17,150 nt of DNA from the NCBI GenBank assembly GCA_964534625.1, contig CAZHRF010000053.1, positions 1 through 17,150 of the forward strand. The letters run 5' to 3'. Under the pieces are notes generated by a model, which saw only the letters and a list, made by a program, of their open reading frames with translations, did not search any database and was not told the origin of the DNA. A program made the translations under genes and the position numbers. Shown one piece after another: positions 35-11,557 of this stretch; position 1 is the stretch's first letter; every line of letters starts with the position of its first letter. Origin of the DNA: an uncultured archaeon. GTDB lineage: Archaea > Asgardarchaeota > Heimdallarchaeia > Heimdallarchaeales > Heimdallarchaeaceae.

Positions 35-226
35 ATGTCCCAAATGAATGATTTAATAGAATGTGGAGATTTTGAAATATATCTTGAAAATGATTGGTGG
101 ATTATCCGTCATAAAGAAACAGGTGAAGAACTAGGGAAGTTTTTAACTAAAGATGATGCTCTTGATAAAGCGTCTTCGTTTCTACAAGATGACGATGAAA
201 GGGAAGAATATGAATCAGTCTGTTAA
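35..226 (+). CDS. Small acidic 63-aa protein; candidate substrate/partner of the adjacent radical SAM enzyme; central part resembles a DUF2188-like small domain
   Basis: ATG at 35 preceded by TATA-like TTTATA at 13-18. Stop overlaps the probable rSAM start (ATG 210) by 17 nt. WWIIRHKETGEELGKFLTKDDALDKA resembles the W-x-V...F-x-T-K-x-[DE]-A pattern. D/E-rich tail ends in Cys. Confidence 0.75.
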   Translation: MSQMNDLIECGDFEIYLENDWWIIRHKETGEELGKFLTKDDALDKASSFLQDDDEREEYESVC

Positions 227-1652
227 AAAGGATCTTGATGCATTCTTTTTTACATATAAAAATCACCAGTTCTTACTAGACCCACTCACTCAATTTTTTT
301 GGAAACTCCAAGACAAAAATTTATCTTTGATTTTTTACTCAAAAAATAATTTTTCACTAGACTATCTATCTCAAACCTCGTCTTGTACATCAATCAAAAA
401 GACACTTTCGGATATGCATTCTCTATCAAGAAGAGGATATTTTGTTCAAAAACGAAATCATCCAAAAGGAAAAAGGGAAAGGAAAAGAGTTAGAAATATT
501 CAATATATCATCATCAATCCAACTCATGATTGCAATCTTGATTGTTGGTATTGTTATGCATCTAAATTAAGAGAAAAAGAAAAAAACTCTGTTGAACCTT
601 CATTTAAATTTATTAAGAAGACTATTGATTACTTTCTTAATCGTCATTCACAAAAGTCCAGTTCTGAACCTTTTGGGATTAATCTCTTTTATACTAGTGA
701 GATTACTTTACACTTTAAGCTTTTTCAAGAAACCCTTGATTATTTATCACAGGTAAAAACTAATTACCCATTCCCAATTTATCTCTTTCCTCCTTCTACA
801 AACTTTTTAGAGCCATCGCCTGCATTCGTTAATTATATCAATAATTATGGTCACCTTATAGTTTCATTAGATTATTCAAATAAGAAACAGATTGAAACTG
901 CCTTACAAAATTTGAACAAGATACAAGAAAATACAACTAAGCAAGTGATCATACCATATCATCCAGATAAAGGGACTTTTCATGATATATATGCAGACAT
1001 GAAGGAATACTTCGATATAATATCCATTCGCCCAGCAAGACTTGGTTTAGATATGACAAAAAAGTGGGATATAACTTCAATCCACGATTTTCAACAGGAC
1101 TTATCTTCATTGATTTCTTATATAACAGAACTAAATGACCACGACTTATTCTTTTTTCTAAGTTCTTTAGGACCCTCAGACTATCTCTCTCGTTTTCTTA
1201 ATAGAGTTATTACCAGAACTAAAATTAATAATAGATGTCCAGCAGCTATTAAGGCAATAACAATTGATCCTAATGGGGAGTTTTATCCCTGCTCAGGTTT
1301 GATAGGTCAAAAGAAATATTGTTTAGGTTCAATTAATCAAGGTTTTGTCCTTAAATCTAATTCACTTAACACATTTTCAAAATTTGTTGATCAAAATGAG
1401 AATTGTGAGAAATGTCCAATAAAATATTTTTGTGGAGGGCATTGCATTGAATGGGGTGAACGAATCAAACCTTCCGTTTCTTATTCTGAATGTACAATTA
1501 ATTTGGAATATATCAAAGCATGTATATATTTAGCTTATCATCTTAAAACTCATAGAACATCGGTCTTTAATGAATATCTTAAAGAAAAAAAAATAAAAAA
1601 TAGGCTAAATTATCCTCTTTATTTTGAGGATTTTTCAACCATATTTAGGTAA
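210..1652 (+). CDS. Radical SAM / SPASM domain protein with probable N-terminal RRE (PqqD-like) domain
   Basis: CxxxCxxC motif CNLDCWYC. SPASM motifs CPAA...IDPNGEFYPC, CEKCPIKYFCGGHC (Cx2Cx5Cx3C) and a distal Cys. N-terminal FTYKNHQFLLDPLTQFFWKL...LSRRGYF is RRE-like. Start moved from 153 to the in-frame ATG at 210 to avoid a long overlap. Confidence 0.9.
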   Translation: MNQSVKKDLDAFFFTYKNHQFLLDPLTQFFWKLQDKNLSLIFYSKNNFSLDYLSQTSSCTSIKKTLSDMHSLSRRGYFVQKRNHPKGKRERKRVRNIQYIIINPTHDCNLDCWYCYASKLREKEKNSVEPSFKFIKKTIDYFLNRHSQKSSSEPFGINLFYTSEITLHFKLFQETLDYLSQVKTNYPFPIYLFPPSTNFLEPSPAFVNYINNYGHLIVSLDYSNKKQIETALQNLNKIQENTTKQVIIPYHPDKGTFHDIYADMKEYFDIISIRPARLGLDMTKKWDITSIHDFQQDLSSLISYITELNDHDLFFFLSSLGPSDYLSRFLNRVITRTKINNRCPAAIKAITIDPNGEFYPCSGLIGQKKYCLGSINQGFVLKSNSLNTFSKFVDQNENCEKCPIKYFCGGHCIEWGERIKPSVSYSECTINLEYIKACIYLAYHLKTHRTSVFNEYLKEKKIKNRLNYPLYFEDFSTIFR

Positions 1653-2037
1653 GAAAACCAAACAATATTGGAACTCCTCGATCTATAAACTCTATATTCA
1701 CATTAAAAAGATGAAGTAAAACAATTAATAGCCAACATAAAGCCAACCATAAGGTTATTGTAGCTACTGATGCCCACACAGCTTTTTTTGTTGTGACATC
1801 CCCAGCCATGTCCCATAACATGAAACAGATTAAAAAGGCTACTATTCCCAGCATTGCTCTTTCAGCAAAAGGTAGAAGGTTAAATACCCATAAAAAGGAT
1901 ATTGCCACAGCCATAATTAGATTGAGCCAACTCCACTTTTTGACTTCACTGGAAAACATTGCAGCGCTAATAATTGCAGCAGCCAGATAAAAGAGTCCTG
2001 TCAAAATTGCCAATAAAATGATTGTCTCGAGTGCCAT
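1645..2037 (-). CDS. Hypothetical 4-TM membrane protein
   Basis: 130-aa ORF with four hydrophobic segments. Convergent with the rSAM gene (8-nt overlap). Confidence 0.8.
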   Translation of the reverse strand: MALETIILLAILTGLFYLAAAIISAAMFSSEVKKWSWLNLIMAVAISFLWVFNLLPFAERAMLGIVAFLICFMLWDMAGDVTTKKAVWASVATITLWLALCWLLIVLLHLFNVNIEFIDRGVPILFGFLT

Positions 2038-2081
2038 ACAAATGTTTTATAATTCGTGTAAATAAATATTGTTGACAATTG

Positions 2082-2465
2082 CTACTCGTCTATCCACCTA
2101 TAAAGATGACTCTGACAGTTCGCTCTACAATCACTATTTCCAAAATTTGTTATTGGTTCTAATTCAGCTATTGAATGCATAATCTGACTTAAAAGACATT
2201 CATTTTTAGCACGTAAGTTAATCATTATACCTTTTATTACGGTTTCTTTTAAACTAGTAAGTTGATCTATATGCCAGTGAATCTTTTTTTTATTTCTTAA
2301 ATGCCTAGATAATCTGGCTCTTAATCCTCCAGAACCAAATGCTGAACCCACATAAAAGTAATAACCAGCCAATAAAACTATTTTTTCTTTAGCGATTTTA
2401 ACTTCTACTTGTTTCTTAAGTTGTAAAAACAAAATATACGCGCCTTTCCAGCCTTCAGTATATAT
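2082..2465 (-). CDS. DUF123-family GIY-YIG (Uri superfamily) endonuclease; start codon uncertain
   Basis: GYYFYVGSAFGSGGLRARLSRH, KKIHWHIDQL and FGNSDCRANCQSHL are DUF123 motifs. The conserved KGAYIL lies in frame at 2447-2430, upstream of the TTG at 2432. The 2465 end assumes a tentative ATA start. Confidence 0.85.
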   Translation of the reverse strand: MYTEGWKGAYILFLQLKKQVEVKIAKEKIVLLAGYYFYVGSAFGSGGLRARLSRHLRNKKKIHWHIDQLTSLKETVIKGIMINLRAKNECLLSQIMHSIAELEPITNFGNSDCRANCQSHLYRWIDE

Positions 2466-2489
2466 ACTTATAATTCCTTGCAGATCAGA

Positions 2490-3515
2490 TTACCCTCCTC
2501 CAGCTTTTTTCCAAAACTTTTCTGCCATTTCCAATTCCCCCATTGATTCATATATATCACCTAGCATTTCTAAAGCATCTACATTGTTTTTATTGTATTT
2601 CAATGCTTCTTTAAGATAGGTAATTGCGTCTTGCGATTTTTTGCTTACCCATAAAAGTGAGGCAATATCAATACTCGCTTCGATAAATCCAGGATCTTTA
2701 TTTAAACATATATTGTATAAAACCAACGCATCATTTATTTCTGCGATAGAGGCTTTTATAACAGCTTGTTTATAATAGCCTAAAGGATTATCAGGTTCTA
2801 ATTCCGTTAATTTATTATATACAACCAAAGCTCCATGTAAGTCTTGATTCTTCTCCAAAATATTTCCAAGTTGTAACCAAGCAGAAAAATTGTCAGGATC
2901 TATTGATGTCACTTTCTCAAAATATTCGATGGCCTTCTTTTTATTGTTAATATCTTCATAATATTGGCCAATTTGAAGCATTATTTGCACATCATTTTCT
3001 GTAGCTAAATTTTCTGCACGTAATAACATATTCCAACTAGTTACATCGTTTCCCATTTTTTTATAAATATCAGCTAATAATGAATAAACTTCAGCATCTT
3101 CATTCAAGTCTATTGCTTCATTTAAGATCTCAATCGCCATAGGATATTCTCCTTTTTTATAAAGCAGCTCCCCATATTTTTTTAACAATTCAAAATTCGG
3201 GTTCACATTTACTGCTTGTGAATATGCAAAGAGAGCTTGTTCCATGTTGCCTAATTGTTGATATGCGTCCCCCATCAATTCTAGAATTTCAGCATCTTCT
3301 GAATTAATTTCCATAGCCCTCGATAAATATTGAATACTAGATATAATTTGACCTTTTCTCAGATAGGCTTGACCTAACAAGTAAAAAAAAGTCGAGTCAT
3401 CTTCATATTCATTAATGCACCCCTCTAATTCAGTTATCGCTTTATCATATTTTTTCTGTTCTAGTAATGAATAGATATGTATGAAGAAATTTGTGTCCGG
3501 TGCTGATTTGTCCAT
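2490..3515 (-). CDS. Tetratricopeptide repeat (TPR) protein
   Basis: Repeated 34-aa units such as FFYLLGQAYLRKGQIISSIQYLSRAMEINSED and AWLQLGNILEKNQDLHGALVVYNKLTELEPDN. Probable start ATG 3515 (MDKSAP); the upstream extension to 3632 looks non-coding. Confidence 0.92.
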   Translation of the reverse strand: MDKSAPDTNFFIHIYSLLEQKKYDKAITELEGCINEYEDDSTFFYLLGQAYLRKGQIISSIQYLSRAMEINSEDAEILELMGDAYQQLGNMEQALFAYSQAVNVNPNFELLKKYGELLYKKGEYPMAIEILNEAIDLNEDAEVYSLLADIYKKMGNDVTSWNMLLRAENLATENDVQIMLQIGQYYEDINNKKKAIEYFEKVTSIDPDNFSAWLQLGNILEKNQDLHGALVVYNKLTELEPDNPLGYYKQAVIKASIAEINDALVLYNICLNKDPGFIEASIDIASLLWVSKKSQDAITYLKEALKYNKNNVDALEMLGDIYESMGELEMAEKFWKKAGGG

Positions 3516-3815
3516 GTTTTTTTCTTGTTTATTATAACTAAAAAATATTGTGAATGGATGAATTTTACTTGAGTATTTCTTGAATGATCTATTCTTGGAA
3601 TGAAAAGAAAGATAGATCCCCGCCTTGAACATATGACTTGTTCTTAGGTCTAGTAGGATGGAAATGAATGAAATCTATCTTTAGTAATTTTAATTGATCA
3701 TTATAGAACAGTGGTTTTGTTCAATTCTAAATATTAGAAGCGTTTCCTTGAAAAACTCACTAAAACCCAGATAACCAACCTTTATAAATGGAAAACTCTT
3801 TTTATAAATTGTATT

Positions 3816-4703
3816 ATGTATCAGATTATTACAAAAAGAGATGACAAATTTGGCTATAGAGTTATAGAATCGAATCTTCCAAAAACTGATGATGATACAA
3901 TTATATACCTTCCAGAAGTATCTACTACAAAAACTACTCATATGAAATATGTTTCCAAATATACTCAAGAAAATGGCACTATTATTGTCAAGCTTGTTAG
4001 AAGTGATGGGTTAGATCCTTTTGGTCGTCCAAAAGCTTTAGCTCATAATCTTTTGTTGTCTCCTGAGGAATACAATAATAGATCGTTAAGTTATTTTGCT
4101 TCACCTCTTCTAAAAAGCATGTTTGATGATATCACAAAAACACCTAACTTATTAAGTGTAGATATGTTTGAAAAGAAAAATAATCTGATTCTTGAAGTGT
4201 TGGATCTTGCAATAATAAGAGAGATTATTGTGGCAGCAATGATACAAGAACAAGTAGTGCTGATTCCTAATTTAGATCAAGAAAGTCTGTTAGATCTTGC
4301 TAGCCTCATTGATAAAGCCATCCCTTATGAAGCCTCATATGATTTTTCACTTATTTCCTATGCAGATAAAACTTGCTCAGATAAACTAATTCATAATATA
4401 TTGTATCTGTTTGCAGATAAATATAGAGGGAAAAAAGAAATAAAAATAAAAAATATTCAAGCGAAGTCAAGAAAAATTGCTAAAGAAGAAAAAGAGTATC
4501 TGAATAAATACATTGAAATGATTATTAATGAAGATTATACTAACCTTATTAGGGAGCATGCAAGATGGGTTATTGGCATGTATTATGATACACATAAAGA
4601 TTTACAGAAAGAGTTCACTGCAAGATATCAGTTAAATATACCATTTGGCCGGAGAAATAAATTCCATCAAAAATATGTTAAATTTATGTCCAAATTTAAT
4701 TGA
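3816..4703 (+). CDS. GAP1-N/M-like (DENN-related) domain protein
   Basis: N-terminal YQ...GYRVI and GLDPFGRPKALAHNLLL match the D-x2-GR-x4-5-H pattern of GAP1-N2-type domains. The central IIVAAMIQEQVVLI...IDKAIPYEASYDFSLISYA resembles the cDENN/GAP1-M core. Helical C-terminus. The CDS itself is secure; the family call is by eye. Confidence 0.6.
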   Translation: MYQIITKRDDKFGYRVIESNLPKTDDDTIIYLPEVSTTKTTHMKYVSKYTQENGTIIVKLVRSDGLDPFGRPKALAHNLLLSPEEYNNRSLSYFASPLLKSMFDDITKTPNLLSVDMFEKKNNLILEVLDLAIIREIIVAAMIQEQVVLIPNLDQESLLDLASLIDKAIPYEASYDFSLISYADKTCSDKLIHNILYLFADKYRGKKEIKIKNIQAKSRKIAKEEKEYLNKYIEMIINEDYTNLIREHARWVIGMYYDTHKDLQKEFTARYQLNIPFGRRNKFHQKYVKFMSKFN

Positions 4704-4738
4704 AGTTTTTTAGCTGTGGTTTATTGAAAAATTTCTAT

Positions 4739-5044
4739 CTATTCTAAAACGTTAACTTTATCTTCCATCTTCCGCTCTTTATCTCTTCGATCATCAATTT
4801 TTAAAGAGGTTATAATCCGTTGACACCCTAAATCAATCATTTTTTCATGTGCCCTCTTAGTAACCGCTAAGATGTCTTCAAGACTATTTGCTTCAACAAT
4901 TGTACCCATGGGGTGTGTGAGTGTTCTGATACCAGGATAACTCTCTATTTCTTTTTTTATTTCTTTGATATACTTGGATAAACTAGTTCCTTCTCCTAAA
5001 GTTGATACTACCAATTCTGCAATTATCTTATAGTTTTTTGTCAT
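4739..5044 (-). CDS. MTH1187/YkoF-like thiamine-binding protein (UPF0045)
   Basis: IIAELVVSTLGEGTSLSKYI, HPMGTIVE and RIITSLKIDDRRDKERKMEDKV are characteristic of the family. Confidence 0.93.
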   Translation of the reverse strand: MTKNYKIIAELVVSTLGEGTSLSKYIKEIKKEIESYPGIRTLTHPMGTIVEANSLEDILAVTKRAHEKMIDLGCQRIITSLKIDDRRDKERKMEDKVNVLE

Positions 5045-5237
5045 GATTTGTCAATTATTTTGTCAATTTTAAAACTTTCAATTCTAACTTTTCCTTTAAG
5101 CAAAAGTATTATTAAGTGTGTATTATTTGAGATAATGTAAAAACTAGTAGAAATGTATTTAAAAACTTAAACAAAACAACTATAAACATTAAAATCTATT
5201 AATCTGTAACTTGCAAATATAAAGGGGTTGATTAAAG

Positions 5238-6401
5238 GTGAACTTAGAATTACTATTGTATGACACAAATGTAATTGCAAAAGGAGTTGCTGCATTAGCC
5301 TTATTTGTTGGTACTATATTCACCGTTTATATAGGGAGAAAACAACAGTCACCTTTTTATCGTAGTTGGTCTGTTTTTCTTTTCGGATATGGCATTTTTG
5401 AAATCGTTAGTATTTATGAATATTTGCTAATTGAATTCCATCTCAATGAAGAATTATATAGTGAGCATCTTTTACTTCAAGCATATCGTTTATTACAATC
5501 CTTCCAAACTCTTTCTATTATATTATTGTTTGGTGCATGTTTACAACAATCAATGATTTTGCCCCCTAAATCCGCCTATGTATTACAAGCCGCCCTTTAT
5601 GGTACGTTTCTTTACTTCATTTGGATACCTCTCGATGAAATGATCAAAAACTTCAATACTCTTAACATCACCCTATTTTCATTAGTTCCTACAGATATTT
5701 TTGGTTTCGGTCTCTCAATTTTAATTTTTGCCAGTGCTTCACTATTAATTCCTATTTATGTCAGATATTCCCAAGCTTACAAATCTAGCAAAGAAAAACG
5801 TTTGCGTATCAAGCGTGATTTTACTTTCATCATGATTTTAATGATCACCACCTTAAGTGGTTTTATGATCGTCAGGAGAGCAATACAAAAAAGTTATCAA
5901 AGTGATGGTTCGTATAGTAATTTTGGATTAATAGAAACACTTGTTACTATGTCCCTTATAATAGTTGTAGCAATTTATCAGAGTCTTTCACTCAGTCATG
6001 GTATAAAAACCATATTATTGGCTGATAGAGAGGGTAATCCTATTGTTGCATATTCTCCATTAAAAAGAGAGCAATTATCTTCTGAAGATAAAATTATTGC
6101 TGTGTCAGGTTTTCTTTCAAGTTTTTTCCATTTCGTTAAAGAGTATATTGCATCTTCTAAAGATGAAACATTTAAAGAAGTTAAAACAACGAACTCTACT
6201 TTTACTTTTTTTGTCCAAGACAAGTTTTTCTTAATAATCCAATCCAAAATTTTGAGTAATATTCTAGAACAAGCAGCTACAGCAACTCTAGAAGAGATAA
6301 ATAACATTCTTGATAGCTTTAATGTAAATGATTTGCCATCAAGAGAACAAGTAAAGACGATTATAGAAAACCTAGATAAATCATTCTATTTATTGGCTTA
6401 A
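5238..6401 (+). CDS. 7-TM membrane protein with C-terminal longin-like domain
   Basis: About 7 hydrophobic helices in aa ~12-250. These are followed by IKTILLADREGNPIVAY...IAVSGFLSSFFHFVKE...FKEVKTTNSTFTFFVQDKFFLIIQ, a beta-beta-alpha-beta-beta-beta-alpha-alpha longin pattern. GTG start. Confidence 0.75.
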   Translation: MNLELLLYDTNVIAKGVAALALFVGTIFTVYIGRKQQSPFYRSWSVFLFGYGIFEIVSIYEYLLIEFHLNEELYSEHLLLQAYRLLQSFQTLSIILLFGACLQQSMILPPKSAYVLQAALYGTFLYFIWIPLDEMIKNFNTLNITLFSLVPTDIFGFGLSILIFASASLLIPIYVRYSQAYKSSKEKRLRIKRDFTFIMILMITTLSGFMIVRRAIQKSYQSDGSYSNFGLIETLVTMSLIIVVAIYQSLSLSHGIKTILLADREGNPIVAYSPLKREQLSSEDKIIAVSGFLSSFFHFVKEYIASSKDETFKEVKTTNSTFTFFVQDKFFLIIQSKILSNILEQAATATLEEINNILDSFNVNDLPSREQVKTIIENLDKSFYLLA

Positions 6402-6452
6402 TATACAAATAATACCAAAAAAAGGATATTATATGAGAATTAAGATCGTTGA

Positions 6453-7391
6453 TTATTTAGAAGCGATATAAGCTAGAATTATATTTACAATGATACGGAT
6501 AGCTGTGGTCATTGCCAATATCCAAAATCCCGTTAATATCCATTCGGATTTTATTTTGTGCAAAAACTGTGGTGCTGTCCAAGAGGCTATTATTGTTCCT
6601 ATTGCTAGAAAGGGAACATAAGCCCATTCAACTGAAGCAAACCTTAAACCGACCCCAAATGGAGTGGTAAGCATTATGGTGAATGTTGAAGTAGCAGTTG
6701 CTATTGCACCTGGAACGCCTAATACCATAGTGAGAATAGGCACATAAATAACACCGCCTCCAAGTCCAAGCAAAGAACCAAAGAATCCACCGAAGAAAGC
6801 TAAAATAACTCCAGGAAATAATTTCACAGTATATTTGAAAGGAACATCTCTTTTATCGGAAAATTCTCTATCAAAAATCCATTTTTTATACCAAGGTAAC
6901 TCAGAATCATCAATCGCATATAATGGTTCTTCTTTTTCAATACCTAGTGCAGATCTACGTTTCTCTAGGAATATCATAACTATTTTGTATAGAGAAATAG
7001 CTAACATAGTTATTCCAAAAAGAATTTTTATAATATCAATACTTGCTGCAACACCTGTATTTTGCTCTTGTAAGGGTTTTATAATAAAAGCAGCTAAAAA
7101 AGCACCTGTTACTGTTCCTGGTACTGCAAAGATAACAAATCTCAGAGCAATAGCAAAATCAATTCTTTTTTCTCTAATATAAGAGATACTACCGCTTATA
7201 CTCGTGAAAATTATTACCCCTAGGGAAGTCGCAGTAGCTTTATCCCCATCAAATCCATACACTAAAACCAATATAGGAACCGTGATAAGACCACCACCTA
7301 TACCAAATGTCGGGGAGATGGCACCTATTAACAGTCCAAATACTATAAGACCTAATATTTCTAATAAAGTAAAACCAAGTAATAAAGACAT
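6453..7391 (-). CDS. Sulfite exporter TauE/SafE (TSUP) family permease
   Basis: Duplicated motifs FGIGGGLITVPIL...ATATSL and LLGLGGGVIYVPIL...ATATS; about 8 TM segments. Confidence 0.93.
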   Translation of the reverse strand: MSLLLGFTLLEILGLIVFGLLIGAISPTFGIGGGLITVPILVLVYGFDGDKATATSLGVIIFTSISGSISYIREKRIDFAIALRFVIFAVPGTVTGAFLAAFIIKPLQEQNTGVAASIDIIKILFGITMLAISLYKIVMIFLEKRRSALGIEKEEPLYAIDDSELPWYKKWIFDREFSDKRDVPFKYTVKLFPGVILAFFGGFFGSLLGLGGGVIYVPILTMVLGVPGAIATATSTFTIMLTTPFGVGLRFASVEWAYVPFLAIGTIIASWTAPQFLHKIKSEWILTGFWILAMTTAIRIIVNIILAYIASK

Positions 7392-7477
7392 TTTTCGTCG
7401 TATTCCTCTTTAAATTTTTTTTAAACGAGGGTTAAAAAATTTATCCTTTTAAACGTAACAAACTGAAAATGAAAAAA

Positions 7478-8155
7478 TTAATTTCTTTTCCCTTTCTTTT
7501 TCTTTAATTGGTCTTCAAACATCATAGGATACGTACGAAATGCCAGATTAAGCCGTATATAACCAATAACATTTATAACACTAAAAAACAACACACCAGC
7601 TATACCTATAATACTAAAAAATAATGCCAAATTTTCATGTATCCTTAGAATAATATACGAAATCAAAAATAGAAGATATACTAAAGCCAAACCAAAATGA
7701 CCTAAAGGGAGGAATATTTTAGGTTCTTTGATTATGTAATCTTCAGCCCATAACTCTTCCATTTGGTCAATTAATAGGTAGAAACCATATCCGAGCAAAC
7801 AATATGCCCCTACCATCATTAGAAACGCCAAATAGTATAAAATAATGGATCCTGTTTCTGTAATAGATACAAACGTAATCTGTGCAATCCCTATTAAGAT
7901 CGAACCGCTAGCGATAAAAAGGCCTATTTTTTCACCTAAAGTCCACGGATAGTCGTTGTTAGTTTTAAATCTATATGATGCATATGAAATACCCAAATAT
8001 GCCAATATTAAGGGGATATAAAGAATATGAGATTGATTAAAGTCAATCACGATGGTATTTAATAAAAATCTTCCAAAGATTATCAATAATATTTGAAAAA
8101 TTAGTAGCATAATGCTACCACTTGAGATAAATTTCGCTAATTTGTATCTTTCCAT
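7478..8155 (-). CDS. ~6-TM membrane protein, paralogue 3 of a tandem trio
   Basis: Six hydrophobic segments. Shares motifs with the two upstream genes (LPLGHFG; VIGYIRL). Confidence 0.85.
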   Translation of the reverse strand: MERYKLAKFISSGSIMLLIFQILLIIFGRFLLNTIVIDFNQSHILYIPLILAYLGISYASYRFKTNNDYPWTLGEKIGLFIASGSILIGIAQITFVSITETGSIILYYLAFLMMVGAYCLLGYGFYLLIDQMEELWAEDYIIKEPKIFLPLGHFGLALVYLLFLISYIILRIHENLALFFSIIGIAGVLFFSVINVIGYIRLNLAFRTYPMMFEDQLKKKKGKRN

Positions 8156-8184
8156 TTTTATCGCTCTCTCTTGGCCATATTTGA

Positions 8185-8853
8185 CTATTCATCACCATAA
8201 ATATCTTTTCTATATTCTTCTTCTTCAATTATTTGTTGATACTTCAGTCTGAATATAGAAACCAATCTATAATAACCTAAAATGATAAAAAATCTCGCAA
8301 CCAAATTAAGAAAGAAAGTTATGTTTTCAAGAAGTATTTGCCCATCCCCATGGCTTATTATCCATATAAAAATCATTACGATAGTCAAGATACCATACCC
8401 TATTGAAACAAAAGGATTAACAACAAATGCCATCTCACCTTTTTCATGTAAATCATTTGTTATTTTCCGTATGTATAGATAAGCAATAGTTAGATTTAAG
8501 TAATAGATTACATTAAAACCCAAATTGACTATACTCAAAGGCGGTGTGGCTAAACTAGCGCCTATTTTTGGTATTAAAGACAAGTTTATTTGTATGATTT
8601 CTATTCCTGCACTAATAAAAAGTAGAACTGATACTAGTAACGTAGATTTTCTATGGTGATTTTCTTTTTTAAATTCATTTCTTAATCTCAAAAACGCTAT
8701 TCCCAATAGTACAAATAGCATATCAATAATAATTGCTATAACAATAACAAATACTTCACTAATTGTTTGTCCAACAATTAAAGCAAGATTTGCTATCAGT
8801 AATCCAAAAAAGCTGTAGTATAAATGTTTGGCAAGATCTTCATCTGAAATCAT
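8185..8853 (-). CDS. ~6-TM membrane protein, paralogue 2 of a tandem trio
   Basis: Six hydrophobic segments; motifs VSIGYG and ILGYYRL. Confidence 0.85.
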   Translation of the reverse strand: MISDEDLAKHLYYSFFGLLIANLALIVGQTISEVFVIVIAIIIDMLFVLLGIAFLRLRNEFKKENHHRKSTLLVSVLLFISAGIEIIQINLSLIPKIGASLATPPLSIVNLGFNVIYYLNLTIAYLYIRKITNDLHEKGEMAFVVNPFVSIGYGILTIVMIFIWIISHGDGQILLENITFFLNLVARFFIILGYYRLVSIFRLKYQQIIEEEEYRKDIYGDE

Positions 8854-8864
8854 CTTTTTACCTC

Positions 8865-9830
8865 TTACTTTATATAGGGGTTTTCTTCACCACATTCGGG
8901 ACAATATTCTGCATCATGTTCAAGTTCTAAGCCACATGATATACAAAACATTTTTTTCTTTCTTTTTTCGTCTCTTTCTATTTGTTTTTCAACCAATGTT
9001 TTTGGACTATTTTCGTTTATATAATTCAAATTTACTGATTGAAATGATTGAGGACTTGTTGGGTTTTTTGCAGTCCCATTACTTTCCATATTGGGATAAG
9101 ACAATTGGTTAATCATATTCATAAAATCTTCAGGTACTTTATCCAAAACAAGTATCGCTCTTCTTAACCTTAACATGCCAAGGATAATTAGTACTAAAAA
9201 GCCCACTTCCATGAATTCAGTTATAGTATAGAGGACGGTATACTGATCTCTAGGTTGTAAACTTGCATCTAACATTTTTTCTATAGGTATGATAACTGTA
9301 ATGAGACTATGCACAGATTGTAGTCCAAAACCTATTACTAGTAAGAGCCCCATATTAAATAGATTTCTTCTAATCATCTCAAAAAGTTTAAAGACTTTTT
9401 GAATTATAAAAAAACTAAAAGAAATTCCAAAAAAGAACATAACATTAAGAGCATTAATAATCCTAAACATATTTATAGAATGCTCTACACTATCCATTAA
9501 ATCAAGTAAAAAAAATATTGAATTAAATAGATAGCCAGAACTCGATAACAAAAGCAAAATTGCCCCCGATTTCAGAACGTTACTGACGTCTAGATCACCT
9601 AATGCTATTTCCGTTTGCTCATTTTTATGCTCCAATGAAGATTCTGCCTGACTAAAAATATAGAAGCCATAAGCCATCCAAATTAAAAGAGAAGCATAGA
9701 TTAGATCAGAAAACTTTGAGACATAGAAGTATATTTTATCGAACAATTGTAAAATTGAGATAATCATTACAACAAAAGAATAGATAAGTGTGGACTTCAA
9801 TATCGGTGACCTAACTCTCTCTGAAATCAT
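8865..9830 (-). CDS. ~6-TM membrane protein with C-terminal zinc ribbon, paralogue 1 of a tandem trio
   Basis: Motifs LVIGFG and ILGMLRL, a polar linker, then CISCGLELEHDAEYCPECGEEN. Probable start ATG 9830 (MISER), 23-30 nt downstream of TTTAAATA. Confidence 0.85.
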   Translation of the reverse strand: MISERVRSPILKSTLIYSFVVMIISILQLFDKIYFYVSKFSDLIYASLLIWMAYGFYIFSQAESSLEHKNEQTEIALGDLDVSNVLKSGAILLLLSSSGYLFNSIFFLLDLMDSVEHSINMFRIINALNVMFFFGISFSFFIIQKVFKLFEMIRRNLFNMGLLLVIGFGLQSVHSLITVIIPIEKMLDASLQPRDQYTVLYTITEFMEVGFLVLIILGMLRLRRAILVLDKVPEDFMNMINQLSYPNMESNGTAKNPTSPQSFQSVNLNYINENSPKTLVEKQIERDEKRKKKMFCISCGLELEHDAEYCPECGEENPYIK

Positions 9831-9852
9831 CAATTCAGACTTAGATGAAGCA

Positions 9853-9860
9853 TATTTAAA
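9853..9860 (-). promoter_or_regulatory. Archaeal TATA box (TTTAAATA) for the membrane-protein trio; probably leaderless transcript
   Basis: Minus-strand TTTAAATA 23-30 nt upstream of ATG 9830. Confidence 0.5.
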
Positions 9861-9877
9861 CTTGTGGACTGATGGAT

Positions 9878-10606
9878 TTATAGATGACCTTCTAACCACT
9901 CACGTATTATTTCAAATGCTTGCTTATATCCCGCATCCATGGGAATAACGTGACCTCCTCTTTCTATCCATTTAATCTCTTTATCTTTTATAGGTATGAC
10001 TTCATAAATTTCCTTTGAATAGTTAGGGGGGACTTGAGTATCTTTTTCAGCATGTAAAATTAATGTGGGAACCGCTATAAGAGGAAGTCTTACACGCATT
10101 TCTTCCAATAATTTGTCAAGTTCTAAGACGCTTTTAGTGCTAAACTTGTCATACCCATGATCTCTACATCGTTCCATTGCATCCTCGTCTTCCCAATAAG
10201 AGGTCATAGCTTTATTCCATGGCTTAAGATATTTAATGAAAGGAAATAGTTTAACAAGATAAAAAATTTTATCGGGAATTTTAATTGGTCCAGCCATACC
10301 AATTATACCGTCAAGACCAGGATTATTTACCGCCAGATAGTAAGTAATAGCGGCGCCCATTGACAATCCCACTACAAATGTTTTATCTATACTTTTTAAT
10401 TTGTCTAATTCTTGCTGAGCATGGTCTATCCATTCGACCCAAGTATGCTGCTTGTGATCTTCAGGTGTTGTTCCATGACCAGGTAAAAGAATATTGTTTA
10501 CAATATAACCCTCATCATGCAAAAATTGCTCTAAAGGTTCCATCTCATAATCTGAACCCGTAAAACCATGAATAAGCACTATTCCTATCTTTTCCTTATC
10601 ATTCAT
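9878..10606 (-). CDS. Alpha/beta-hydrolase, carboxylesterase/monoacylglycerol lipase (Est/YvaK-like)
   Basis: IHGFTGS, LPGHGT, nucleophile elbow GLSMG, catalytic Asp in AEKDTQV and His in GGHVI. Confidence 0.93.
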   Translation of the reverse strand: MNDKEKIGIVLIHGFTGSDYEMEPLEQFLHDEGYIVNNILLPGHGTTPEDHKQHTWVEWIDHAQQELDKLKSIDKTFVVGLSMGAAITYYLAVNNPGLDGIIGMAGPIKIPDKIFYLVKLFPFIKYLKPWNKAMTSYWEDEDAMERCRDHGYDKFSTKSVLELDKLLEEMRVRLPLIAVPTLILHAEKDTQVPPNYSKEIYEVIPIKDKEIKWIERGGHVIPMDAGYKQAFEIIREWLEGHL

Positions 10607-10702
10607 AAGAAGTCTATAAAGGAAATAAAATATATACTTTCTGGAATCATAATAAGTATGAACACAGGATTTAATATGTGGAAATTTTTCCTGAAAAGGT
10701 AG

Positions 10703-10933
10703 TTATATTGTCTCAACATATGTTAATCTAATGGGCACAAGTTTTCCATTTCGAGTTTCAACTTTTCCTTGTTCTAGTAATGTATCTAAAGCTCTTTGAA
10801 CGCGAAACAAGATATTCAAATTATCAATCCACATATATTTCAAGAGCTCGTTTTGAGACTTGGGTCCTTCTTGACACAAAATGCTTAATATGTGGTCTTC
10901 AATAAATTTTATGTTTAGCTCACTTTCACTCAT
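10703..10933 (-). CDS. Small winged-helix-like protein
   Basis: ILSIL...GPKSQNELLKYM...RVQRALDTLLEQGKVETRNGKL fits a wHTH pattern; has its own TATA box. Confidence 0.7.
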   Translation of the reverse strand: MSESELNIKFIEDHILSILCQEGPKSQNELLKYMWIDNLNILFRVQRALDTLLEQGKVETRNGKLVPIRLTYVETI

Positions 10934-10957
10934 ACAACGAATTATACCAGATTTCAG

Positions 10958-10965
10958 TATTTAAA
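10958..10965 (-). promoter_or_regulatory. Archaeal TATA box (TTTAAATA) for the wHTH gene
   Basis: Minus-strand TTTAAATA 25-32 nt upstream of ATG 10933. Confidence 0.5.
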
Positions 10966-10987
10966 GATGCCAGATACCATATTTAGT

Positions 10988-11557
10988 CTAAAGTTCTTCT
11001 TCATAATAGTCACGTTTATGATAGCATCCCAAAAAGATGTTAAAACGAGGAACGGTCTCTTTGTATTTGCGAAAAGGATACCCATGTAATTCTTCTAAAT
11101 AAATGTCTTTTTCAACAGATGATAATATAAAACATATCAAAGCCATAAGTGCAAATAAATTAGATAATATACTATGATTGATAAGTATAAGTGCAATACA
11201 ATTTAAGATCAATCCAAGAGTTACTGGATGTCTAACATAGGCATAAATTCGTAAATTACGGAATTTTGTCAATTCTTTTATTCCTCTTTGATTAATCCAT
11301 CGTTTTCTTTCCCACAAAAAACCTGCCAAAATAAGAGAAAACGCAATTAATCCAGTATAAAGGCCAAATTGAACCATTAACGGGGGAGCATCATATTCAC
11401 CTATATTATAGAATGCAATGCTTAAAATCATCAATAGAAAAGCTATATTCTGAAAAATTTTATATCTTATGCCTTTATATGTATTAAATATAAGCCAAAT
11501 TATTAGATAGATACCAAGAACGATCAATACCACCCAAAACCAAATCGAATCAATCAC
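10988..11557 (-). CDS. Isoprenylcysteine carboxyl methyltransferase (ICMT/PEMT, Ste14-like) family membrane protein
   Basis: Multi-TM protein with IYAYVRHPVTLG and LEELHGYPFRKYKETVPRF motifs. GTG start. Confidence 0.85.
   Translation of the reverse strand: MIDSIWFWVVLIVLGIYLIIWLIFNTYKGIRYKIFQNIAFLLMILSIAFYNIGEYDAPPLMVQFGLYTGLIAFSLILAGFLWERKRWINQRGIKELTKFRNLRIYAYVRHPVTLGLILNCIALILINHSILSNLFALMALICFILSSVEKDIYLEELHGYPFRKYKETVPRFNIFLGCYHKRDYYEEEL

Follow-up and report, generated by a model that had tools for sequence, protein, structure and literature searches.

In eukaryotes the longin fold acts as a docking platform for small GTPases, and longin domains are usually paired with another longin or with a roadblock domain. 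Asgard archaea carry dozens of small GTPases together with longin/roadblock proteins. In the papers searched, the published Asgard longin/roadblock proteins are soluble and occur as fusions with GTPase, TRAPPC3, roadblock or two-component domains (Klinger 2016 via PMC4917890; PMC10933270), and fusions of a GTPase to a longin have already been reported (PMC10933270; PMC4917890). How these soluble GTPase and longin parts reach membranes is a question raised in the literature, because no machinery for lipid modification was found in the genome of Lokiarchaeum (PMC4917890). A comparable combination of parts has been described in actinobacteria, where the G protein systems known as conservons (CvnA-D) unite a kinase in the membrane with a roadblock protein and a Ras-like GTPase; in them the sensor is histidine-kinase-like, a roadblock of MglB type serves as the platform, and a single operon encodes the components as separate proteins (PMC13343842). 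Here we describe a gene on a stretch of 17,150 nucleotides (hereafter the window; contig CAZHRF010000053.1 of GenBank assembly GCA_964534625.1, from an uncultured archaeon of the Heimdallarchaeaceae) whose product joins a predicted bundle of seven transmembrane (TM) helices to a single C-terminal longin domain, and which is referred to below as the 7TM-longin protein.

This protein differs from the published Asgard longin proteins in being a polytopic membrane fusion. It resembles the conservons in logic only; unlike them, its membrane part and its platform are fused in one chain, there is no kinase and no GTPase gene adjoins it. No paper describing a longin fused to a polytopic membrane protein was found in the literature searched, and Pfam holds no model for the 7TM-longin family. 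A 2026 preprint reports Asgard “7TM proteins” and a “class C GPCR” (G-protein-coupled receptor) structural cluster, and the portion of its text examined contains no longin fusion. The 7TM-longin protein represents a variant architecture, new within the known Asgard longin repertoire.

The gene belongs to a real and conserved family in which the two domains occur in fixed pairing. A profile search of 301 Asgard genomes recovered full-length orthologues in all 28 sampled genomes of the same family (E 1e-115 to 1e-152), an observation that therefore exceeds chance, together with a 353-aa paralogue in the own genome (G000; 3.37 Mb, 89.8% complete), where about nine open reading frames (ORFs) encode six to seven TM helices followed by a longin. 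Direct searches returned few close relatives, all annotated as “hypothetical protein” of Candidatus Heimdallarchaeaceae, and a word-indexed profile search with A2 added nothing. Conservation is higher in the longin part than elsewhere in the protein (mean pairwise identity 66% vs 52% for the TM part), and within the orthologues it peaks in strands one and two and in helix alpha1 of this domain. Across 20 orthologues 57 positions are invariant, with H254 at the junction of TM7 and the longin as the sole invariant histidine. When 201 Asgard genomes were searched with a profile of the TM part alone, 57 were matched (21 of 21 in the own family; 21 of 40, 8 of 10 and 0 of 43 in others), and the matches fell nearly all in ORFs of 350-450 aa, the size of 7TM-longin genes, and almost never in ORFs of other sizes. 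Because the TM module is almost confined to ORFs of this size, both parts most likely work as one unit. Among 20 fetched loci, the distant members likewise showed six to eight predicted helices followed by a longin, some of them with an extra tail of ~80 aa.

The C-terminal domain is predicted to fold as a longin. When residues 252-387 were modelled in isolation with AlphaFold2, from an alignment of 23 rows including paralogues, the model reached a mean predicted local distance difference test (pLDDT) score of 86.6 and a predicted template modelling (pTM) score of 0.81. Its elements follow the order beta-beta-alpha-beta-beta-beta-alpha-alpha without an N-terminal helix (DSSP, model numbering: strands 7-12, 17-22, helix 33-53, strands 63-65, 70-75, 79-85, helices 90-106, 118-132), and the same order is present in the full-length model. 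A Foldseek search of the PDB with this model gave 56 matches at E<=1e-3, led by the longins of the TRAPP complex Bet5/TRAPPC1 and Trs23/TRAPPC4 (1.3e-5) and followed by zeta-COP, the N-terminal domains of AP sigma and mu, Mon1-Ccz1 and Fuzzy. In a VIA-align search of 48,161 representative chains, the best match was the first longin of Fuzzy (LD1; 7q3d_C), with Z 13.0 and 2.8 A over 123 residues, together with Mon1 (9rs7_A; Z 12.5), VAMP7 (11.6) and the longin of the Lokiarchaeal Roadblock-Longin protein (PDB 8yqg; 11.5), the last belonging to the same phylum and the same domain superfamily as the protein described here. All of the 50 VIA-align rows listed for the domain were longin or roadblock proteins. 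The longin chains among them cover model residues ~4-136, whereas the roadblock chains cover only 1 to ~110. The absence of an N-terminal helix and the presence of two C-terminal helices therefore argue for a longin rather than a roadblock, and a Roadblock/LC7 (MglB-type) identity was rejected: that fold, alpha-beta-beta-alpha-beta-beta-beta, has a helix at its N-terminus and no more than one at its C-terminus, whereas a strand opens the present domain directly behind TM7 and two helices close it.

The sequence evidence is weakly consistent with the same identity. The target protein itself had no Pfam match at E<=0.1. The domain profile matches Trs23 (E 6.4e-4), the paralogues give sub-threshold Pfam matches to Sybindin, Fuz_longin_1, Intu_longin_1 and Robl_LC7, and a 7TM-longin homologue from another family (L069) scores above the Pfam cut-off for Intu_longin_1 (24.9 vs 23.7 bits). 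A preliminary description of the gene, made from the letters alone, had placed a longin-pattern domain from about position 5997 onwards; the soluble domain was found to start at residue ~253 (nt ~5994), and it contains the motif then quoted, IKTILLADREGNPI...SGFLSSFFHFVKE. This motif resembles the beginning of the longins of Rab exchange factors and of TRAPP, with a hydrophobic strand, G-x-P and then S-G-h-h-S-A-h-x-x-F, and the predicted domain has the same fold and topology as the first longins of Fuzzy-Inturned/CPLANE, Mon1-Ccz1 and BLOC-3 and as the core longins of TRAPP (Bet5/TRAPPC1, Trs23/TRAPPC4). Unlike these tri-longin and TRAPP systems, whose complexes are peripheral in eukaryotes, the protein has one longin, no TRAPP partners and a covalently attached 7TM part. 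The architecture of a tri-longin Rab exchange factor, with three longin domains in place of the single one found here, was accordingly rejected for it, and an exchange activity of the tri-longin or TRAPP kind is, by analogy, a candidate function only.

As for the membrane part, the earlier proposal of about seven TM helices with a basic loop between TM5 and TM6 was borne out. Seven hydrophobic segments were seen in the Kyte-Doolittle profile of the 387-aa protein, and the full-length AlphaFold2 model (11 homologues in the alignment; pLDDT 75.8, pTM 0.67) contains seven helices at residues 3-35, 41-70, 76-104, 110-129, 154-184, 187-220 and 226-250, mostly with pLDDT values of 80-94, a small hairpin in the loop between TM4 and TM5, and the basic stretch KSSKEKRLRIKR at residues 182-193. 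Lysine and arginine residues amounted, over 20 orthologues, to 11.6 in 33 predicted cytoplasmic loop positions vs 3.55 in 68 outer positions. Following the positive-inside rule, this bias supports an N-terminus outside the cell and a cytoplasmic longin domain. Structure prediction and fold searches back the proposed pairing of a 7TM part with a cytoplasmic longin.

In VIA-align, residues 1-252 matched the 7TM bundles of GPCRs of classes A, B, C, F, T and adhesion (Z 15.9-13.7), with a root-mean-square deviation of 3.5-4.5 A over 210-240 residues and 5-12% identity when the full model was used. Adiponectin receptor 2 (Z 14.5), alkaline ceramidase 3 (Z 14.1), de novo GPCR-like folds and a rhodopsin-like chain likewise matched the bundle. 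As the stated background of the program for helical bundles is Z ~13-14 from arrangement alone, these values, barely above it, point to a GPCR-type arrangement and not to homology. We therefore describe the TM part as a predicted seven-helix bundle of GPCR-type arrangement, N-out/C-in, with no homology implied. The likeness to eukaryotic GPCRs (Z 14-16) consists of the seven helices, the N-out/C-in topology and the basic TM5-TM6 loop; unlike them, the protein gave no match to 7tm or to any other TM family in Pfam even at E<=10 (noise only), its translation contains none of the DRY, NPxxY and CWxP motifs, and its proposed output is a built-in longin and not a heterotrimeric G protein. A search of PDB sequences with the full-length profile found nothing significant, the best receptor match having an E value of 0.89. 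The label “receptor-like” of the preliminary description consequently holds at the level of the fold, at which GPCR, PAQR, ceramidase and rhodopsin bundles all score similarly, and does not extend to sequence homology or to GPCR motifs. By hhalign, no relation of the TM module was detected either to the three multi-TM genes of its neighbourhood or to the 7TM proteins of the C15 and C95 GTPase clusters (probability <2% in both cases).

On the basis of these results, it may be proposed that the seven helices, with the N-terminus out, would hold the single longin domain at the cytoplasmic face of the membrane, where a small GTPase or a GTPase-longin fusion could bind to it, whether it acts singly or together with a second longin or a roadblock domain. 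Docking of this kind would bring the GTPase to the membrane or control it there, the protein possibly acting as an exchange factor, as a GTPase-activating protein or by plain recruitment, and the 7TM bundle would serve as an anchor and possibly as a sensor modulating the longin platform. To this reading of the protein as a membrane-fixed longin docking platform for a small GTPase we assign an even chance. It is favoured because the closest structural matches of the domain (Fuzzy LD1, Mon1, TRAPP Bet5/Trs23) are longins that act as GTPase platforms, and because the same type of longin is fused to Arf-like GTPases in the own genome. The stronger version, in which the protein is a one-polypeptide archaeal receptor and GTPase regulator, its 7TM part sensing a ligand or the state of the membrane and switching a longin that loads or unloads an Arf- or Rab-like GTPase, appears unlikely to us.

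The own genome offers several suggestive links between this longin type and GTPases. The domain profile identified 46 ORFs with such a domain, including three in which it lies C-terminal to an Arf-family GTPase domain (C2_5741, C62_10319 and C21_33972; E 1.8e-28 and 3.3e-32 to Pfam Arf in two cases) and about twelve proteins of 650-750 aa with tetratricopeptide repeats (TPR) that end in a C-terminal longin, the remaining ORFs being N-terminal longin proteins and stand-alone domains. Downstream of a Rab-like GTPase gene (C11_37541), at a distance of 529 nt and in the same orientation, stands the paralogue C11_35882; an orthologous pair of 7TM-longin and Rab-like GTPase genes is adjacent in two complete genomes of another genus, the membrane proteins being 34-35% identical. 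In a distant lineage (L082), genes for a winged helix-turn-helix (wHTH) protein, a 7TM-longin protein, a TPR protein with a weak longin match and a Ras-like GTPase follow one another on one strand. In addition, six same-strand genes on another contig of the own genome (C15:29426-34154, minus strand) form an unfused counterpart of the fusion, coding for a 218-aa longin-motif protein, a 6TM protein, a 164-aa ORF, a 175-aa Arf-like GTPase, a 268-aa 7TM protein and a 452-aa N-terminal-longin protein, with the 7TM gene 5 nt from that of the Arf-like GTPase. The gene described here shares longin and 7TM component types with this operon; it differs in that its neighbourhood is devoid of a GTPase and in that the 7TM proteins of the C15 cluster show no detectable relation to its TM module (hhalign probability <1%). 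In general terms, about 46 small GTPase-like ORFs stand beside the about 46 longin-type ORFs in the 3.37 Mb of this genome. We also observed that the 7TM-longin paralogue, the Rab-like GTPase and a divergent 669-aa TPR-longin protein are found together on contig C11 (35882-41240; L094).

Several observations weigh against a role of the protein in GTPase docking. No small GTPase gene is present in the 17-kb window, and none was found in the flanks examined of the orthologues, the wider blocks having been compared without a GTPase screen. At about 25 loci of the family, considered with flanks of 3-4 kb, a GTPase gene lay within ~4 kb at three, where ~2.7 would be expected, the genome having 46 GTPase-like ORFs over its 3.37 Mb; an enrichment of GTPase genes beside family members was therefore rejected, the count being about that of chance. 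The adjacency of C11_35882 to its Rab-like neighbour is weak evidence because gene order is broadly conserved within the family. Longins also have roles without GTPases, as parts of SNAREs, coat subunits and the SRP receptor's alpha chain (PMC10933270). The longin part of the full-length model is only moderately confident, the confident model being that of the domain alone. As regards expression, the stretch is contained in four DNA runs of one microbial-mat study, which may be its source, and only DNA runs, no RNA run, are listed as containing it. The earlier suggestion that the output is GTPase regulation hence stays plausible by domain logic, given the Arf-longin fusions and the Rab-like neighbour of one paralogue, and is not sustained by gene context, with no GTPase in the window, adjacency at the level of chance and a wHTH partner in another lineage.

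That last partner raises the alternative of a sensor in the membrane whose 7TM part would perceive a signal and whose longin would bind or release a winged-helix transcription regulator instead of a GTPase. In another Asgard family (f14), genes for 7TM-longin proteins of 430-440 aa directly follow, on the same strand and at a distance of 0-40 nt, a conserved gene of ~240 aa (~320-340 aa in a few loci) that encodes HTH_HVO_0163_N and HTH_20/TrmB-type wHTH domains, a pairing seen at 11 gene pairs in 9 genomes (L077-L086; e.g. L082:2882-3598 and 3602-4888) and resembling a conserved unit of two genes. The conserved wHTH gene ahead of the f14 members supports such an output and counts against docking of a GTPase. 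However, the orthologues of the target have no wHTH neighbour, the best match to the wHTH profile in the own genome is on another contig, the f14 proteins are distant paralogues carrying the extra ~80-aa tail, and a wHTH regulator may merely control transcription of the membrane gene that adjoins it; we therefore regard this alternative as rather improbable for the target. To a similarly low probability we relegate the view that the 7TM part is itself the effector, such as a transporter, a channel or a PAQR/ceramidase-like hydrolase, with the longin as a regulatory or dimerisation module unrelated to GTPases. This view could draw on the adiponectin receptor and ceramidase folds, which fit the TM bundle about as well as those of GPCRs, on polar residues that are invariant where helices end and within short loops (Q104, R213, R214, S251, S253, H254), and on neighbouring genes that concern the membrane or the envelope (TauE, the WecB-like epimerase of other genera and the three multi-TM proteins). 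Yet the longin and not the TM part is the most conserved, no Pfam family of transporters or enzymes was matched, and a zinc-binding His/Asp cluster of the PAQR/ACER type is missing, the only invariant histidine lying at the junction with the longin. The specific reading as a PAQR or alkaline ceramidase hydrolase was rejected, as no conserved His/Asp of this kind occurs among the 57 invariant positions of the 20 orthologues.

A further alternative bears on origin alone and can be combined with any of these outputs. It holds that the protein is a divergent sensor of the HisKA_7TM type in which a longin output has taken the place of a lost kinase output, and that it belongs to a lineage of prokaryotic sensors and is no kin of the eukaryotic receptors. 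In hhalign, the TM profile aligned with Asgard HisKA_7TM domains at a probability of 68-69% (P 4e-5), in register from TM1, as against 0.3% for a reversed control, although TM profiles often yield moderate false scores. An f14 member (L061) combines a longin domain with a weak match to PF16927 (E 4.5e-4, positions 3-216 of 224), and one nearest Atlas cluster of a homologue, with that homologue as the query, carries the automatic name HisKA_7TM. Nevertheless, the cut-off of PF16927 was reached by no member among the target, its orthologues, its paralogues and ten diverse members, and the own genome has no match to PF16927 at E<=1. HisKA_7TM membership was accordingly rejected at the Pfam level and retained as a remote lead, and the corresponding origin may be called possible, with the chances leaning clearly against it.

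Returning to the membrane-fixed docking platform for a small GTPase, the interest of the family lies in the direct and testable link that it offers between longin regulators and the membrane. It would offer a route to membrane localisation and candidate membrane partners for archaeal GTPases. Should the 7TM part sense, the protein would be a compact device for signalling from the membrane to a GTPase in those archaea that are most closely related to eukaryotes; should it not, the family would still add a new class, anchored in the membrane, to the large longin repertoire of Asgard archaea. If the combination of receptor and regulator were true, it would provide an archaeal way of recruiting GTPases that lack a lipid anchor to the membrane, and a functional forerunner of the eukaryotic pairing of a membrane sensor with a longin/roadblock GTPase regulator, as in the lysosomal Rag machinery.

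The features of the gene are collected in Table 1. The Shine-Dalgarno-like AAAGGGG lies 10-13 nt before the GTG start, in a window with a G+C content of ~30%.

Table 1. Features of the 7TM-longin gene, in positions of the window.
Feature	Positions	Strand	Basis
Whole gene, 387-aa 7TM-longin protein	5238..6401	+	ORF list and translation; GTG start, stop at 6399-6401
Putative Shine-Dalgarno-like AAAGGGGTT upstream of the GTG start	5221..5229	+	Direct sequence reading; role presumed
Seven-helix TM domain, residues 1-252, N-terminus predicted outside	5238..5993	+	Hydropathy, AlphaFold2, VIA-align, positive-inside count
Basic cytoplasmic TM5-TM6 loop, residues 176-193, including KSSKEKRLRIKR	5763..5816	+	Translation; basicity kept in orthologues
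Cytoplasmic longin domain, residues 253-387	5994..6398	+	AlphaFold2 domain model, Foldseek, VIA-align, profile match to Trs23

Two minor observations concern the coding region. A 13-residue insertion in the first outer loop (residues 67-79, nt 5436-5474, around EFHLNEELYSE) is restricted to the own genus, and orthologues of other genera are without it. An antisense ORF of 103 aa (5996-6307, minus strand) falls entirely inside the conserved part that codes for the longin and is in all likelihood spurious.

The preliminary description had further proposed a signalling or trafficking neighbourhood with a DENN-like gene ~0.5 kb away on the same strand. This candidate gene (295 aa, 3816-4703) has orthologues in 27 of 30 sampled relatives of the same family. 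Four genera have it upstream of the 7TM-longin orthologue, at a distance of 4-18 kb and with both genes on one strand; a fifth has it on the opposite strand, 30-40 kb off. In the window an antisense Thiamine_BP gene separates the two, and their spacing of 0.5 kb is due to the loss of a variable insert. An operon of the two genes was rejected in view of the antisense gene here, the 4-18 kb of variable genes elsewhere and the opposite strands in one genus. Gene order weakly suggests a link by block synteny among relatives, so that membership of one conserved 17-kb block was retained from the earlier proposal and a closer association was not.

When positions 153-11557 were compared with five relatives (L089-L093), nearly all of this region proved to be one gene block kept across genera, in the order radical-SAM/SPASM, TM130, DUF123, TPR, DENN-like, variable insert, 7TM-longin, WecB-like, TauE, three multi-TM genes, alpha/beta hydrolase and ICMT-like. 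The own genus has at this spot neither the insert (a DsrE-like trio, a flavoprotein and a secreted peptidase-like gene) nor the WecB-like gene. The three multi-TM genes (7478-9899, minus strand), the last of them with a zinc ribbon, were found 1-4 kb downstream of the 7TM-longin orthologue in five of five genomes, and in one genus they follow it directly.

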